From an uncultured Actinomycetota bacterium (GTDB taxonomy: Bacteria; Actinomycetota; Actinomycetes; Mycobacteriales; QHCD01): a stretch of DNA of 64,000 bases. The stretch's first letter is position 1. Each line of letters starts with the position of its first letter. Where the stretch lies: the NCBI GenBank assembly GCA_963837545.1, contig CAWINQ010000004.1, forward strand, positions 44,838 to 108,837, written 5' to 3'. The translations under genes and the position numbers were made by a program. This document shows, in pieces, positions 6,933 through 59,371 of this stretch. The notes beneath the pieces were generated by a model. That model was not told the origin of the DNA. It did no database searches and saw only the letters and a program-made list of their open reading frames with translations.

Positions 6933-6999
6933 CCGGCGGAGGCTACTGGATCGCCCCGCAGCCCACCCCACACCCCACCTCACCCCCACCTCCCCCCAT

Positions 7000-7082
7000 G
7001 TCCAAAAGCCACTACTAGTGGGTTTTGGACATCTCGAACGGCGTGTCGCCGACCAAAAGCCACTACTAGTGGGTTTTGTCGG
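7000..7082. repeat. composite palindromic intergenic element, copy A (two CAAAAGCCACTACTAGTGGGTTTTG palindromes plus a conserved spacer)
   Basis: Half-sites at 7000-7030 and 7049-7082. Near-identical copies lie at 27352-27431 and 58614-58697. Confidence 0.85.
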
Positions 7083-7133
7083 AGTGGAGATCGGGTCGCG
7101 GGCCCGTCCTCGGGGTCAGGCGGGTCAGGCGGG

Positions 7134-7949
7134 TCAGGCGGGCCAGGCGGGTGGGCGCTTGGCGAGGAATGCCGCCATGCCCTCCCGGGCCTCGGGTGTC
7201 TGGCTGGCGGCCGCCATCACCTCGACCGCGAAGGTGTAGGCGTCCCGCTCGGGCCGGTCCAGCTGTGCGTAGAGCGCCTGCTTCCCCACGCCCTTGGACC
7301 GGGCGCTCCCCCGCGTCGCCCGGTCGAGCAGGTCGAGGGCCGCCTTCTCCAGGTCGGCGTCCGGCACCACCCGGTTGACCAGGCCCCACGCGCAGGCCGT
7401 GCGGGCGTCGATCACGTCCCCGGTGAGCGCCATCTCGAACGCGCGTTTGCGGCCGACGTTTCGGGCGATCGGGACCATCGGGGTGTGGCAGAACCACCCG
7501 CCCCTGCCCCCTGGTGCGGCGAAGCCGGCGGACTCACCGGCCACCGCCAGGTCGCACGAGGCCACCAGCTGGCAGCCGGCCGCCGTGGCCAGCGCATGCA
7601 CCCGGGCCACGACGACCTGGGGGATGTTCTGCATGGTCTGCATCAGGTCGGTGCACAGGGCGAGCAACCGCCGCACGCCCGCCAGGTCGGCCTCGGCGAC
7701 GTCGGCGAAGTCGTGCCCGGCCGAGAAGACCCGCCCGGCGCCGGCGAGGATCACGCCGCGCGCGTCGGTCTCCCCGACCTCGGCGAACGCGGCCCGCAGT
7801 TCGCGCAGGTGGTCGAAGGACAGCGCGTTGCGCCGGTCGGGGCGGTTCATGGTCACGGTGGTGAACTCGCCCTCGCGCTCGACCAGCACGTGCGGATAGC
7901 TCCCCATGACCGCACCGTACGCCGACGGGCCCGCCGGCTCACCACTCAT
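7134..7949 (-). CDS. enoyl-CoA hydratase/isomerase (crotonase) family protein
   Basis: MSGEPAG...VLVEREGEFTTVTMNRPDRRNAL...GRVFSAGHDF. ATG 7949 overlaps the LysR stop as ATGA. The ORF-track start at 8357 lies inside the LysR gene. ATG 7907 is an alternative start. Confidence 0.85.
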   Translation of the reverse strand: MSGEPAGPSAYGAVMGSYPHVLVEREGEFTTVTMNRPDRRNALSFDHLRELRAAFAEVGETDARGVILAGAGRVFSAGHDFADVAEADLAGVRRLLALCTDLMQTMQNIPQVVVARVHALATAAGCQLVASCDLAVAGESAGFAAPGGRGGWFCHTPMVPIARNVGRKRAFEMALTGDVIDARTACAWGLVNRVVPDADLEKAALDLLDRATRGSARSKGVGKQALYAQLDRPERDAYTFAVEVMAAASQTPEAREGMAAFLAKRPPAWPA

Positions 7950-26483: not shown

Positions 26484-27343
26484 CGGGCACCGTTCCTTCC
26501 TGCGTCGTGCGCTACGTCCGGTGCCCGCACGGCCGTGGCGAACCTCGGCCTCCCGGCGAGATCGCGGTGGTCGGTCACCTGCTCCCAGCCTCCCATTGCC
26601 GACAGGAGCGCCGGCACGCACTCCCCTTGCCGGTCCGCGTGCTCGACACCGAAGAACCCACCCGGGCGCAGCAGCCGCGCGGCGGTGGCCGCGACGACCC
26701 GGACGACGTCGAGCCCGTCCGGGCCGCCCCACAGGGCGGCCGCCGGGTCGTGCCGGGCGACCTCGGGCTCCACGGTCGAACCGTCCGGGATGTAGGGCGG
26801 GTTGGCCAGCACCAGATCGACCCGGCCGGTGTGCTCGGGCAGGGCACCGTCCGCGTCGGTGCAGTGCATCTCGACCCGCCGGTCGGCGTTGTTGCGCTCG
26901 GCCCACGCCACCGCGAAGCGCTCCCGCTCGACCGCGTGGACCTCGGCCTGCGGCGCCTCGTCGGCGACGCTCAGCGCAATGGCCCCGCTGCCCGAGCACA
27001 GGTCGACGACCACCGGCGCGGGCAGCCCGGCCAGCCGGGCCAGTCCCCACTCGACCAGGACCTCGGTCTCCGGCCGTGGGACGAACACCCCCGGCCCCAC
27101 GGCGAGCTCCAACCGCCGGAAGCCGGCGGTGCCGGTCAGGTGCTGGAGCGGGACCCGGTCGGCCCGCTGCTCGATGAGCGCGAGGTAGGCGACGCGTGCC
27201 TCGGCCGGGACCTCGCCGACCGTGATCAGGAGGCCCGGGGCGATCCTCAGGGCGTGGGCGAGCAGCAGCCGGGCGTCATGTTCGGGGCTGGCCACCCCGG
27301 CCTCCCGCAGCCGCTCGCCCCCCTGCCGCACCAACCCCTCCAC
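26480..27343 (-). CDS. prmC: peptide chain release factor N5-glutamine methyltransferase
   Basis: NPPYIP motif and LLLAHAL...LTGTAGFRRLELAV. The start is placed at GTG 27343 (GTG 27331 is an alternative), just downstream of repeat copy B. Confidence 0.85.
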   Translation of the reverse strand: MEGLVRQGGERLREAGVASPEHDARLLLAHALRIAPGLLITVGEVPAEARVAYLALIEQRADRVPLQHLTGTAGFRRLELAVGPGVFVPRPETEVLVEWGLARLAGLPAPVVVDLCSGSGAIALSVADEAPQAEVHAVERERFAVAWAERNNADRRVEMHCTDADGALPEHTGRVDLVLANPPYIPDGSTVEPEVARHDPAAALWGGPDGLDVVRVVAATAARLLRPGGFFGVEHADRQGECVPALLSAMGGWEQVTDHRDLAGRPRFATAVRAPDVAHDAGRNGAR

Positions 27344-27351
27344 CCCCGCGC

Positions 27352-27431
27352 GAACAAACGCACTACCAGTGCGTTGTGGAGGCTCCGTACGGCGCGTCGC
27401 GGACCCAAACGCACTAGTAGTGCGTTTGTTG
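27352..27431. repeat. composite palindromic intergenic element, copy B
   Basis: Half-sites at 27354-27379 and 27406-27428. The second is a perfect 23-nt palindrome, CAAACGCACTAGTAGTGCGTTTG. The spacer contains GTACGGCGCGTC. Confidence 0.85.
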
Positions 27432-27473
27432 CCGAGGTCGCCGGGGTCGCGGGGCATGGGACGAATCGGGCGG

Positions 27474-28562
27474 TCAGCGGGTGCGGGAGGAGGGTTCGGT
27501 GTCGGCGAGCATCGCCTCGGCATCGGCGCGGGTCAGGGCGTCGATCACGGCGTCGAGGTCGCCGTCGAGGACCTGCTCGAGGTTGTATGCCTTGTAGCCG
27601 ACCCGGTGGTCGGAGATGCGGCTCTCCGGAAAGTTGTACGTACGGACCCGCTCGCTGCGGTCGACCGTCCGCACCTGGCTCCGGCGCGCGTCGGAGGCCT
27701 CCTGGTCGGCCTGCTCCTGTGCCATCGCGAGCAGGCGGGCCCGCATCACCCGCAGCGCCGCCTCGCGGTTCTGCAGCTGGCTCTTCTCGTTCTGCATCGA
27801 GACGACCGTGCCGGTCGGCACGTGGGTCAGCCGGACGGCCGAGTCGGTGGTGTTGACGCTCTGCCCGCCCGGCCCCGACGAGCGGAACACGTCCACCCGC
27901 AGGTCGCCGGGCTCGATCGCGATCTCGACGTCCTCGGCCTCGGGCAGCACCACGACCCCGGCCGCCGAGGTATGGATGCGGCCCTGCGACTCGGTCACCG
28001 GGACCCGCTGGACGCGGTGCACGCCGCCTTCGAACTTCAGCCGGTTCCAGACGCCTCCCCCGCCGCGCGCCTTCACTCCGACGCTGACGTCGCGGTAGCC
28101 GCCGAGCTCGGTCGGTTCGGCGTCGAGCACCTCGGTCTGCCAGCCGCGGCGTTCGGCATAACGCAGATACATGCGCAGCAGATCGCCGGCGAACAACGCC
28201 GACTCCTCGCCGCCCTCGCCCGCCTTGATCTGCAGGATCACGTCCTTGGTGTCGTTGGGGTCCTTGGGCAGCAGCTGCTCGCGCAACTTCGCCTGCAGCT
28301 CGTCGATCCGTACGTCGAGGTCGGCGGCCTCGCGGGCGAAGGACGAGTCCTCGTGGGCGAGCTCCCGGGCGGCGTCCCGGTCGTTACGGGCGGTCTCGAG
28401 CGCCCGGGCGGTCTCCACGACGGGGCCGAGCTCGGCGTAGCGTCGGCCGAGCGTACGGGCCCGGGCCTGGTCGGCGTGCACCGCCGGATCGGCGAGGATG
28501 CGCTCGAGCTCGGCGTGCTCGGCGAGCAGGCCGGGCAGCGCTTCGGGAGTCGTATCGCTCAT
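27474..28562 (-). CDS. prfA: peptide chain release factor 1
   Basis: 362 aa. GGQ motif in [20 protein letters not shown]. Confidence 0.97.
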
Positions 28563-28880: not shown

Positions 28881-29017
28881 CGGATGTCCTCTCGTCATGG
28901 TCGCCGGGTCGCCCGAATCGGACGTGAACCGGAACCGTCTCCGTCACCAGTGTGCCAGACCCGCCCATTTCGGTGGACGGGCCGGCCACTGGCCAATGAA
29001 CGCCGTGGCGTCGCGGA

Positions 29018-37900: not shown

Positions 37901-37972
37901 GCCCCCGTAGCTCAGGGGATAGAGCACCGCCCTCCGGAGGCGGGTGCGCAGGTTCGAATCCTGCCGGGGGCA
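37901..37972 (+). tRNA. tRNA-Arg (anticodon CCG)
   Basis: Hand-folded cloverleaf: acceptor GCCCCCG/CGGGGGC, D arm GCTC-AGGGGATA-GAGC, anticodon stem CCGCC/GGCGG with loop CTCCGGA, T arm GCAGG-TTCGAAT-CCTGC, discriminator A. No CCA is encoded. Confidence 0.9.
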
Positions 37973-44561: not shown

Positions 44562-45932
44562 GTGTCGAGGTATGAAAGTCACCCCGGCATGAGCGGGTAC
44601 CGGAGCGTCGACGTGCCGGCCGCGGAGGTCCGCGAGGTCCTCGGCCGGCACCTTCTGGTCGAGGCGTTCCGATTGGTCCTGGATCCCGCGCGCAGCCGGG
44701 GCGCGTGGCTGGTGGACGCGATCACCGGCGATCGGTACCTGGACTTCTACACCTTCTTCGCCTCCGCCCCACTGGGCGCCAACCCGCCCGGCGTCGTCGA
44801 CGATCCGCAGTTCATGGCGACCCTCGCCGAGATCGCCGCGAACAAGCCCGCGAACTCCGACATCTACTCGAGCCAGCTCGCCGAGTTCAGCGAGACGTTC
44901 TTCCGGGTCCTCGGCGACCCCGCCCTGCCCCACCTGTTCTTCGTCGAGGGCGGCGCGCTGGCCGTCGAGAACGCCCTCAAGACGGCGTTCGACTGGAAGA
45001 GCCGGCGCAACGAGGCGGCAGGTCGCTCGCGTGACCTGGGCACCCAGGTCATGCATCTGACCAAGGCGTTCCACGGACGCAGCGGCTACACGCTGTCGCT
45101 CACCAATACCGATCCGGTGAAGATCGACCGCTATCCGCGGTTCTCCTGGCCGCGTCTCGACGTCCCGATGATGCACTTCCCGATCGAGGCCCACCTCGCG
45201 GACGTGGAGGCCGCCGAGGAGCACGCGCTGGCGCAGGCCCGCGCGGCGTTCGCGGCCCACCCCCACGACATCGCCTGCTTCCTCGCCGAGCCGATCCAGG
45301 GCGAGGGCGGCGACAACCACATGCGGCCGCAGTTCCTCCAGGCCATGCAGCAGCTGTGCCTCGACAACGACGCGCTGTTCGTCCTCGACGAGGTCCAGAC
45401 CGGGGTCGGGGTGACCGGCACCCCGTGGGCCTACCAGCAGCTGGGGCTGGAGCCGGACGTGGTCGCCTTCGCCAAGAAGGTCCAGGTCGGCGGCATCATG
45501 GCCGGGCGCCGGGTCGACCAGGTGCCCGACAACGTGTTCGAAGTCCCCAGCCGCATCGGTTCGACCTGGGGCGGCGGGCTGGTCGACATGGTCCGCTCCC
45601 GCCGGATCCTGGAGATCATCGAGCGCGACGGACTCTTCGACCACGCCTCGCGGGTGGGGAAGTGGTTCCTCGCCCAGCTGCAGAATCTCGGCGACCGGCA
45701 CCCGGAGACCGTGTCCAACGTCCGTGGTCGTGGGCTGATGTGCGCGTTCGACCTGCCGGACACGCCGACCCGGGACGCGGCGATCGCCCGGCTCCACCAG
45801 GAGCACGTCCTCGTCCTGCCCTGCGGCGGCCGGTCGATACGGTTCCGGCCACCCCTGCAGATCACCGAAGACGAGCTCGACATCGGGCTCGCCGCACTCG
45901 ATCGGGTCCTCGCCCTCCCACTCGGATGGTGA
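44562..45932 (+). CDS. lat: L-lysine 6-transaminase (lysine epsilon-aminotransferase)
   Basis: YLDFYTFFASAPLGANPPGVVDDPQF...NKPANSDIYS...GDPALPHLFFVEGGALAVENALKTAFDWKSR closely matches my recollection of mycobacterial Lat. ATG 44589 is an alternative start. Confidence 0.85.
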   Translation: MSRYESHPGMSGYRSVDVPAAEVREVLGRHLLVEAFRLVLDPARSRGAWLVDAITGDRYLDFYTFFASAPLGANPPGVVDDPQFMATLAEIAANKPANSDIYSSQLAEFSETFFRVLGDPALPHLFFVEGGALAVENALKTAFDWKSRRNEAAGRSRDLGTQVMHLTKAFHGRSGYTLSLTNTDPVKIDRYPRFSWPRLDVPMMHFPIEAHLADVEAAEEHALAQARAAFAAHPHDIACFLAEPIQGEGGDNHMRPQFLQAMQQLCLDNDALFVLDEVQTGVGVTGTPWAYQQLGLEPDVVAFAKKVQVGGIMAGRRVDQVPDNVFEVPSRIGSTWGGGLVDMVRSRRILEIIERDGLFDHASRVGKWFLAQLQNLGDRHPETVSNVRGRGLMCAFDLPDTPTRDAAIARLHQEHVLVLPCGGRSIRFRPPLQITEDELDIGLAALDRVLALPLGW

Positions 45933-58499: not shown

Positions 58500-58613
58500 G
58501 GTCCCGCCGTGACTCCTTACCTGACTCACGCAACTACTTGCTCGCGTCCAGCATCCACCTGTGCATCACTCCCGGCAACGTGTTTTCGTGTGATCCGAGT
58601 CTCGCCACCCCCA

Positions 58614-58697
58614 CCGACAAAACGCACTACTAGTGGGTTGTGGTCGTCCGGAACGGCGTGTCCTCGACCAAAACGCACTACTAGTGGGTTTTGTCGG
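58614..58697. repeat. composite palindromic intergenic element, copy C
   Basis: Half-sites at 58614-58646 and 58664-58697. The second half differs from copy A only by CG versus GC. The spacer contains GAACGGCGTGTC. Confidence 0.85.
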
Positions 58698-58705
58698 CGG
58701 GCGGG

Positions 58706-59371
58706 TCAGGCGGGAACGGCGGTCAGCCAGGAGCGATCAGACGTGCACCAGGCGTCAAATCGCAGGCCGACCCGGGCGAGATCGCGGTCGAGATCGCCCG
58801 GGGTGAGCCGGCGTGCGACGAAGTCGTGCTCCCAGCGCCGGTCGCCGGCCTCGTAGACCGCGGTGGCCTGCAGCAGATCGCCCTGCCGCCGAACGCCGGA
58901 CAGTCCGGTCCGCACGGGTCCCACCGACCCGCCCGTCCCGGCACGCACGGTGTCGAACCACTCCGGCGGGTGCCACTGCGCGACCAGGACGCCGTCGGCG
59001 GCGAGGTGGGCGGCGGCCGTCGCCAGCATCGCGATCCGGTGGCCGCCGTCGGGGGTGTTGATCAGCTGACTCGCCACGAGTACGGCGTCGAAGCGGCGAC
59101 CGAGGTGGAGGTCGGCGATCCCGGCGAGAACGGTCCGTGCGTCCCGGACCCGTGCCAACATCTCCGGCGACTCGTCCACCGCGACGACCGGGTGCCCGAG
59201 TGCGGCGAGCGGTCGTGCGAGCCGGCCGACGCCGCACCCGAGATCGAGCAATGAGCCACCGGGCCGGATCGCGCCGTGGATGATCTCCGGCTCGCCCATC
59301 GGCGGAAGCAGGGAGTACAGCTCCACCGCGCAGCCGTCCGGCGCGATCGGGCCGGGGCCGCGACCGGTCAT
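58706..59371 (-). CDS. class I SAM-dependent methyltransferase
   Basis: Motif I LLDLGCGVGRLARPLAALGHPVVAVDES. The start overlaps the upstream MFS stop (ATGA). Confidence 0.8.
   Translation of the reverse strand: MTGRGPGPIAPDGCAVELYSLLPPMGEPEIIHGAIRPGGSLLDLGCGVGRLARPLAALGHPVVAVDESPEMLARVRDARTVLAGIADLHLGRRFDAVLVASQLINTPDGGHRIAMLATAAAHLAADGVLVAQWHPPEWFDTVRAGTGGSVGPVRTGLSGVRRQGDLLQATAVYEAGDRRWEHDFVARRLTPGDLDRDLARVGLRFDAWCTSDRSWLTAVPA

Follow-up and report, generated by a model that had tools for sequence, protein, structure and literature searches.

A dispersed intergenic repeat of paired, REP-like palindromes in a few related uncultured soil Actinomycetota

Why does the same pair of palindromes stand at three places in one 64-kb stretch of actinobacterial DNA, each time between two different genes? 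The stretch, called the window below, comprises 64,000 nucleotides (positions 44,838 to 108,837) of contig CAWINQ010000004.1 from an uncultured Actinomycetota bacterium, and the element is a composite of two near-identical palindromic units. Its three occurrences, copies A, B and C, are genuine copies of a dispersed intergenic repeat restricted to a few related uncultured soil Actinomycetota. They belong to a well-defined repeat family of the repetitive extragenic palindrome (REP)/REPIN kind, in a phylum with none reported in the surveys PMC3733652, PMC6006769 and PMC5581495. We consider it probable that the element represents a lineage-restricted family of ~86-bp REP-doublet repeats (REPIN/BIME-like) that is mobilized in trans and attenuates transcription; the mechanism of spread and the effect on RNA are what we infer for this family.

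The composite repeat occurs exactly three times in the window (Table 1). The centres of its two palindromes are 51 bp apart in 3/3 copies, and the copies have a mean column identity of 84%. The core CACTASYAGTG matches the six half-sites of copies A-C only, with 0.02 matches expected from shuffles. These six half-sites, and no others in the window, also came up in a search with a 20-mer core at a tolerance of 3 mismatches and in one with an nhmmer profile made from 56 members of the family. The spacer (A/T)ACGGCG(T/C)GTC is conserved and joined to a short variable linker, and GC versus CG is the sole difference between units A2 and C2. Copies A and C carry one mismatch each, repeated in both units (arms GCC...GGG in A and CGC...GGG in C). 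In copy B the A/T tracts are cut down to 3 nt in 4/4 cases. The flanking gene pairs, enoyl-CoA hydratase-NucS (A), PrfA-PrmC (B) and class I methyltransferase-MarR regulator (C), are all on the minus strand, with identities confirmed by Pfam. The copies lie 51 nt (A), 42 nt (B) and 8 nt (C) behind the stop codon of the upstream gene, ahead of nucS, prmC and marR. All three share one orientation, with the family consensus on the plus strand; copy A is therefore antisense to its flanking genes. Each half folds as a hairpin, and the complete composite can also fold as a single long hairpin. A preliminary description of this DNA, made from its letters, had reported three composite copies, palindromes about 50 bp apart, the conserved spacer, the GC/CG difference, short gaps behind the crotonase, prfA and methyltransferase genes, and both kinds of hairpin. 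All of this was borne out, coordinates included.

Is the repeat confined to the window? An exact scan with AAASSCACTASTAGTGSGTT over one genome per species (185,579 species) found 40 loci. Thirty-six of them are in one metagenome-assembled genome (MAG), ‘uncultured Actinomycetota bacterium MFD01213.bin.1.215’, nearly all as 51-bp pairs, and the remaining four are single chance matches in other phyla. This MAG is the only one of the species genomes scanned in which the core is paired at 51 bp. Its 36 loci, taken as 8-kb segments, hold 54 composites; with the three window copies they make up the family sample of 57 composites (114 units), 56 of which are in the alignment (A4). The window is distinct from the MAG, to which its nucleotide identity is about 83-86%: two syntenic MAG loci match it at 82-84% identity and a third region at 85-91%. 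By PrfA homologues the group sits among MAGs labelled Mycobacteriales, and everything outside the group is at most ~80% identical. A search of Joint Genome Institute (JGI) metagenome contigs with a looser core gave 112 loci, all of them single hairpins in unrelated contigs and none a composite. A full-text literature search for the core sequences found no paper. The earlier comparison with REP/MIRU/MITE-like dispersed intergenic repeats is supported by the 54 further composites in the related MAG, none of them in coding regions, and by their REP-like anatomy.

The conserved stretch of the family measures ~86 bp, with a period of 50-52 bp that is nearly always 51. Two palindromic units of 25-36 nt are combined with a variable linker of 8-10 nt and the conserved block CGGCGTGTCG, and the outer ends are inverted over 17-20 nt (GTGGACAAAAC...GTTTTGTCCAC in the main subfamily). 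Two subfamilies exist in the MAG. T1 reads ccc-GTGGAC-AAAACCCACTA-s-TAGTGGGTTTT-GGaC-(8-9 nt variable)-CGGCGTGTCGTGGACC-AAAACCCACTA-s-TAGTGGGTTTT-GTCCAC, and T2 reads sTGACC-AAAACGCACT-(AGG/CCT)-AGTGCGTTTT-GGGGg-(variable)-ACGGCGTGTCGCGGACC-AmAACGCACT-(AGG/CCT)-AGTGCGTTTT-GGTCa. They are distinguished by a C-G to G-C swap that is compensated in both units (CCCAC/GTGGG in T1, 35-37 copies, versus CGCAC/GTGCG in T2, 18 copies); copy B of the window is T2-like. The compensatory changes that the preliminary description proposed to look for are found in this swap, in four more compensated changes, each within single units, and in the outermost feet, which covary (GGAC...GTCC, GACC...GGTC, GCCC...GGGC). 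Most MAG T1 copies have GTGG ahead of both units, and CCAC ends unit 2 (a ‘double foot’). At the foot position T2 has sTGACC and the window copies, all without GTGG, have ATGT, GCGA and ACCG. In T1 the arms and feet are 96% conserved and the linker 62%, equal to the flanking DNA; 0/595 pairs among 35 T1 linkers are identical.

Pairing holds in 93% of alignment cells under a two-hairpin model and under a long-hairpin model alike. The inner arms fit two hairpins slightly better, and the feet favour end-to-end pairing. By unit, 97% (unit 1) and 90% (unit 2) of the cells are paired in the 56 aligned copies. T1 folds as one hairpin (-64.8 kcal/mol, z = -10) and T2 as two hairpins plus a mini-hairpin in the spacer; a single unit folds with -18 to -22 kcal/mol. 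Since all symmetry in the family is palindromic, it does not discriminate between structure in RNA, structure in DNA and binding by a symmetric protein.

Such symmetry could mean that the palindromes are paired operators for a dimeric DNA-binding protein, either nucleoid-associated or a global regulator, with T1 and T2 serving two paralogues. Palindromes five helical turns apart would put two dimers on one face of the DNA, and the palindromes are perfect (11+1+11), with a strict period of 51 ± 1 bp over a linker of free sequence. The centre base or loop is free to flip, as symmetric duplex recognition predicts, and the T1/T2 symmetry is kept through the compensated swap. We nevertheless regard operators as improbable. 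The copies are not concentrated at promoters and are depleted per base between divergent genes, the neighbouring genes are functionally unrelated, and no candidate binding protein is linked to the sites. The feet, the spacer block and the restriction to few genomes fit a repeat population better than a regulon. That the element is a structured small RNA gene or a cis-regulatory RNA is hardly credible, although its folding is strong (z from -4 to -10). No Rfam family matched the elements at the gathering threshold, and a permissive search gave only sub-threshold generic long-hairpin (miRNA-precursor) matches. The copies lie in both orientations relative to genes, a consensus scan found no promoter-like site, and the covariation is palindromic with no one-strand G-U excess.

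Several known paired or repeated sites were also set aside. A CRISPR array needs at least three repeats and unique spacers of at least 26 nt, whereas the element always has exactly two units and a partly conserved spacer of ~20 nt. Integron attC, Xer/dif-like, NrdR-box and parS sites were dropped on anatomy (two units, wrong spacing or sequence, unrelated neighbours).

The placement of the family provides further insights. All 57 composites are intergenic. The 36 occupied intergenic regions that could be classified comprise 22 co-directional, 9 convergent and 5 divergent ones, and 31/36 are adjoined by one gene end or more. Per base, copies are scarcer than expected in divergent regions (p = 0.02) and more frequent in convergent ones (p = 0.01). 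Relative to the upstream gene, the MAG copies point one way in 14 cases and the other way in 8, with no significant link, so the uniform orientation in the window is no family rule. Of the two regularities noted before, the shared orientation stands for the three window copies and fails for the family, and the position after stop codons holds in the window and, given the divergent regions, is not a strict rule elsewhere. Adjacent composites, 43-101 bp apart, occur at 14 MAG sites and at one site in a JGI contig. Such doublets consist of one T1 and one T2 copy in 15/15 cases, in tandem or inverted (P ~8e-6 under random pairing). At no fewer than seven MAG sites an upstream open reading frame (ORF) extends into the element, where the TAG at the centre of the palindrome ends it (Table 1); an example is a TetR-like protein ending ...GPLDKTH*. 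At these sites the insertion supplied the stop codon and replaced the last few codons. Gene-start and gene-stop miscalls are likely because ORFs run into this TAG.

Short tandem repeats (unit 5-15 nt, 2-12 copies) abut the ends of the elements (Table 1). Of 74 intergenic TRF arrays, 34 are found no more than 60 nt from an element, in zones that make up ~13% of the intergenic DNA. At MAG locus L003 the array consists of 9 copies of GTCCACGG, which is the 3' foot of the element itself. The hydratase gene of the window acquires three successive in-frame TGA codons from (GGGTCAGGC)x4. The rigid direct doublet, the obligate T1+T2 neighbours and the tandem micro-repeats at the ends are unusual features of the family.

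Orthologous sites in relatives revealed both persistence and turnover. All three window sites are occupied in the MAG too, in the same orientation relative to the genes. At site A a T1 copy is common to the window, the MAG and JGI contig L156, with NucS 94% identical; of the neighbouring T2 copy the window has none, and the MAG carries it in antisense, L156 in sense orientation. Site B is empty in two close relatives, L154 (PrfA 96% identical) and L157 (94%), in which the flanks align on either side. The site B linkers of the window and the MAG are related despite arms of T2 type in one and T1 type in the other. Arms thus switch type in place, which points to conversion among copies. The empty site B and the absent, present or inverted T2 copy at site A indicate that the elements turn over. 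Thus, the elements persist across ~15% divergence, yet are gained or lost, which is the published behaviour of REPIN populations (PMC3337134; 10.1101/2022.05.22.493013).

The long contig L154 (ERZ25039463 contig_86001) has many genes called as fragments (argS, lysA, hom, thrC, atpB), which looks like indel errors of long-read assembly. Such errors do not account for the empty prfA-prmC site of this contig, a difference of 80 bp. The 43-nt filler at this site contains GGCCG-GTGT-CGGCC, resembling the mini-hairpin in the element's spacer. In contig L159, from a JGI sample with an empty prfA-prmC site, the methyltransferase stop is followed by 56 nt with nothing but a degenerate CAAACGCAC...GGGGTTTG hairpin. 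The contig ends there, and the hairpin may be a decayed solo unit at site C.

What could the element do to transcription? With its A4 tract, stem CCCACU/AGUGGG, 3-5 nt loop and U4 tract, each unit has the form of a bidirectional intrinsic terminator. The core AAAACCCACT-NNN-AGTGGGTTTT (a 23-mer pattern) forms a single A-tract/hairpin/T-tract site in the 112 JGI contigs, which are mostly of low GC, and a terminator consensus scan flags unit A2 on both strands. Site B is informative in this respect. In a relative without the element prfA and prmC are 15 nt apart, and co-transcription of the pair is therefore presumed. At site B neither genome has an intact U-tract on the transcribed strand, and the mutations differ: each of the two tracts is cut from TTTT to TTT in the window, whereas they read TTAT and TTGT in the MAG. 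At other sites, 52 or more of 56 copies have undamaged outer tracts, and copies A and C, at the ends of transcription units, retain every tract. The damage at this single site suggests that canonical copies would attenuate transcription and that the effect is selected against inside an operon. The shared terminator considered in the preliminary description gains indirect support from the unit form and from this erosion between prfA and prmC.

The same observations would suit a portable tandem terminator or insulator selected by the host, which stops or attenuates transcription both ways in a genome of 70%+ GC with few canonical terminators and is kept by selection, not by ongoing transposition. 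The unit is the exact form of low-GC bidirectional intrinsic terminators, the three window sites are occupied in the MAG with arms far better conserved than linker or flanks, the U-tracts are eroded at the intra-operon site only, and copy C stands between a gene end and a conserved marR leader. There is also a precedent in the mycobacterial TRIT, a sequence-conserved terminator motif with 147 copies (PMC3152330). However, some occupied regions lie between divergent genes, the U-tract is just 4 nt, and sites are gained or lost among close relatives. In addition, the near-identity of dozens of copies, the two subfamilies and the heterotypic doublets require a copying mechanism anyway. We think such a host-selected terminator rather unlikely; it is compatible with the REP-doublet reading and does not exclude it.

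The gene starts downstream of the three copies deserve description. An ATG/GTG ~17 nt past the prfA stop is conserved in 4 related genomes (window, L155, L154, L157). In both genomes that have element B, the prmC frame is open from this codon through the element, which would add 26 codons, NKRTTSAFGSATRRTEPPQRTGSAFV. A GGAGG just past the element and the start of the PrmC_N domain argue for a downstream prmC start, although a translated in-frame insertion is conceivable. In the marR leader, ~60 nt are near-identical in the window, the MAG and contig L158, and the surrounding intergenic DNA has diverged. The leader holds the palindrome GCAAGTAGTTGC followed by AAGGAG, probably a MarR autoregulatory operator and a ribosome-binding site. 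Between element A and the nucS start lies a C-rich tract with G-runs on the coding strand (GGGGGGAGGTGGGGGTGAGGTGGGGTGTGGGGTGGG), which could form a G-quadruplex in the nucS 5' leader; in the MAG its composition is kept and its sequence is not. Above threshold, only two Rfam matches are present in the window, the L31-Actinobacteria leader upstream of rpmE and a tRNA gene (Table 1).

How might the repeats spread? In the REP-doublet reading, the element would be non-autonomous and would move, or once have moved, as single-stranded hairpin DNA. The enzyme would be supplied in trans and would most likely be an HUH/Y1 tyrosine transposase, of the REP-associated tyrosine transposase (RAYT) or IS200/IS605 kind. 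HUH/Y1 enzymes act on hairpins in single-stranded DNA. New copies would land preferentially beside a member of the other subfamily, or persist nowhere else. In the transcript, each unit (A4 tract, GC stem, U4 tract) would be a weak terminator or attenuator in both directions and also form a barrier at the mRNA 3' end, which would explain why copies are tolerated mainly behind genes.

The flanking target duplications that the preliminary description proposed to look for are lacking: no direct repeat of 3 bp or more exists at any boundary offset pair. This speaks against a DDE-type MITE (a miniature transposable element with inverted repeats) and fits the HUH/Y1 enzymes (RAYT, IS200/IS605 TnpA). 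A classical MITE, an internally deleted insertion sequence (IS) with a DDE transposase, mobilized via its terminal inverted repeats, would account for the 17-20 nt inverted ends and for an ~86-bp, intergenic, multicopy element. We regard it as very unlikely, also because no transposase gene was found in the window (Pfam, ~36 of ~55 proteins) or beside the copies, and because the interior consists of two copies of one hairpin, unlike IS ends. The genes enclosed by elements (at MAG loci L002, L004, L005 and L022) are, by translation alone, hydrolase-like, acetyltransferase-/TetR-like and Rpf-like, with no transposases among them. The flanks show no systematic complementarity, and only at locus L012 is there a longer flanking palindrome. 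The sole flank signal is a C-rich 5' flank, with C at ~70% at three positions before the foot. Covariation between linker and flank of the ‘guide’ type, as in IS608, was not found; strong mutual information exists only between the feet that define the subfamilies.

A number of observations weigh against the REP-doublet reading with trans-mobilization and attenuation. No Y1 or RAYT gene was found in 352 kb (window plus MAG loci) with phmmer using E. coli RayT and an HUH...Y regular expression on six-frame ORFs, and Pfam identified no transposase or integrase among ~36 of the window's ~55 predicted proteins; the mobilizing enzyme is accordingly a putative one. The orientation of copies shows no link with GC skew or gene strand (24 vs 33, with little power in 8-kb loci) and so gives no support for insertion into the lagging-strand template. 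Counted per region, the distribution over gene-pair classes equals random expectation, and five sites are divergent. The units are mostly direct copies of each other (the T1 centre base is the same in 23/36; T2 loops agree in 7 and are inverted in 4), arranged head-to-tail at a rigid 51-bp period, whereas classical BIME/REPIN dimers are inverted. The T2 subfamily and the three window copies are without the GT[AG]G foot. The U-tract has no more than 4 nt, and the RNA polymerase of mycobacteria depends on a U-tract and is inefficient at weak ones (PMC3993855). Old, immobile sequences kept by selection would likewise fit the occupation of all three sites in two genomes that differ by ~15%. Finally, in read archives the window region appears in three soil-metagenome DNA runs only.

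A more far-reaching proposal, which we offer tentatively and consider doubtful as a whole, is that this is the first REPIN-like population to be described in Actinomycetota. Its two subfamilies would co-evolve and insert or survive only side by side, it would be maintained by a dedicated single-copy HUH enzyme, maybe distant from known RAYTs, and it would have been co-opted as a portable two-way attenuator in a high-GC genome where canonical terminators are scarce.

To our knowledge, work on REP/REPIN systems has been almost confined to Proteobacteria. A family in Actinobacteria that combines a rigid head-to-tail doublet, mutually pairing subfamilies and filled and empty sites would extend REP biology to a new phylum. 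It would also offer a tractable system for asking how such repeats are copied and what favours hetero-pairs, both open questions. How transcription ends in high-GC Actinobacteria is still debated; if the units attenuate, they would be natural, sequence-defined terminators for these bacteria. The family is also a specific marker of the uncultured lineage and a likely cause of assembly breaks.

Table 1. Positions and make-up of the repeat copies, their orthologous sites and associated features.
Feature	Sequence	Position	Strand	Remarks
Copy A composite	window	6999..7082	+	between enoyl-CoA hydratase stop (7134-7136, minus) and nucS start (~6932); nhmmer E=1e-24
Unit A1	window	7000..7030	+	centre 7015; 31-nt palindrome GTCC-AAAAGCCACTA-C-TAGTGGGTTTT-GGAC, one G.G mismatch
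Copy A variable linker	window	7031..7036	+	length fixed across family, sequence as variable as flanking DNA
Copy A conserved spacer AACGGCGTGTCGCC	window	7037..7050	+	block CGGCGTGTC near-invariant in family; GGCG-TGT-CGCC mini-hairpin possible
Unit A2	window	7051..7080	+	centre 7066; direct copy of A1: GAC-CAAAAGCCACTA-C-TAGTGGGTTTTG-TC; terminator-like on both strands
Copy B composite	window	27352..27431	+	between prfA stop (27474-27476) and prmC ribosome-binding site/start (~27331-27343); CGC/GCG (T2) arms
Unit B1	window	27353..27379	+	centre 27366
Unit B2	window	27404..27430	+	centre 27417; perfect palindrome CAAACGCACTA-G-TAGTGCGTTTG
Copy C composite	window	58614..58697	+	between methyltransferase stop (58706-58708) and conserved marR leader/promoter region
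Unit C1	window	58615..58646	+	centre 58630; left arm T2-like (CGC), right arm T1-like (GGG)
Unit C2	window	58666..58697	+	centre 58681
Site A (ech-nucS)	window, MAG, JGI contig			window: one composite; MAG (L008): T2 (antisense) + T1; JGI contig L156: T2 (sense) + T1
Site B (prfA-prmC)	window, MAG, L154, L157			window: occupied, T2-type arms; MAG (L155): occupied, T1-type arms; L154, L157: empty
Site C (methyltransferase-marR)	window, MAG, L158			window: occupied; MAG (L015): occupied; L158: occupied
ORF ending at central TAG of outer palindrome	L004	1309-1953		
ORF ending at central TAG of outer palindrome	L024	4937-6274		
ORF ending at central TAG of outer palindrome	L037	2190-3014		
ORF ending at central TAG of outer palindrome	L014	4749-7514		
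ORF ending at central TAG of outer palindrome	L030	3191-4996		
ORF ending at central TAG of outer palindrome	L007	2390-4177		
ORF ending at central TAG of outer palindrome	L035	132-920		
Tandem array at element end	window	7113-7152		
Tandem array at element end	window	27431-27454		
Tandem array at element end	L003	922-992		
Tandem array at element end	L039	4473-4553		
Tandem array at element end	L034	5826-5853		
Tandem array at element end	L005	3476-3518		
C-rich tract, element A to nucS start	window	6945-6998		
prmC-frame reading open through element B	window	27343-27457	minus	
prmC-frame reading open through element B	L155	11104-11245		
marR leader	window	58530-58592		
Degenerate hairpin after methyltransferase stop	L159	1409-1464		
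L31-Actinobacteria ribosomal-protein leader upstream of rpmE	window	28899-28938	minus	Rfam, 52.8 bits
tRNA gene	window	37901-37972	plus	Rfam

The element can be compared with four known systems. With canonical bidirectional Rho-independent terminators its units share the A-tract, a 5-7 bp GC-rich stem, a 3-5 nt loop and the U-tract. They differ in that the U-tract is 4 nt and the unit is part of a repeated 86-bp composite with near-identical copies genome-wide. The TRIT of Mycobacterium (PMC3152330) is likewise actinobacterial, a palindromic hairpin of conserved sequence that has many copies near gene ends and is mostly bidirectional, and the MAG ORFs that end at a palindrome TAG recall TRITs overlapping stop codons. 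By description it is set apart from the present element, which is a fixed doublet with a spacer and two subfamilies and also lies between divergent genes. Palindrome-associated elements of the IS200/IS605 kind, reduced to a minimal left end plus right end (LE+RE), have two similar subterminal hairpins in direct orientation and no target duplication, as here, and the C-rich 5' flank could correspond to their target motif. In contrast to them, the present family shows no parent IS or TnpA, no guide-flank covariation and no orientation bias with GC skew.

The closest likeness is to the REP/BIME/REPIN systems of Proteobacteria (E. coli, Pseudomonas, Stenotrophomonas). Apart from the direct arrangement of the units, the present family differs from them in that a conserved block makes up half of the spacer, the GT[AG]G foot is missing from T2 and the window copies, the 352 kb searched here yielded no RAYT, and the host phylum is Actinomycetota. 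Actinobacteria are not mentioned in the main text of the REP surveys PMC3733652, PMC6006769 and PMC5581495, and our literature search found no paper combining REP, RAYT and Actinobacteria. Published REP/BIME/REPIN elements are paired palindromes of ~89 bp that fold as a hairpin, with several families per genome; their hetero or hybrid dimers are possibly favoured because long perfect palindromes are unstable, and they prefer co-directional and convergent gene pairs (PMC3337134, PMC3733652, PMC6006769). The present family resembles them in its palindromic units of 20-40 nt paired into ~86-89 bp, with one long hairpin possible, and in being extragenic and multicopy without target duplication. 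Its spacer is constrained in length and unlike in sequence in every copy (PMC3337134), and several co-resident families form hetero or hybrid dimers. Both also persist vertically at orthologous sites and have A/T runs beside their stems, and T1 carries the GT[AG]G foot, as GTGG, together with the ‘double foot’ (PMC6006769, PMC3733652).

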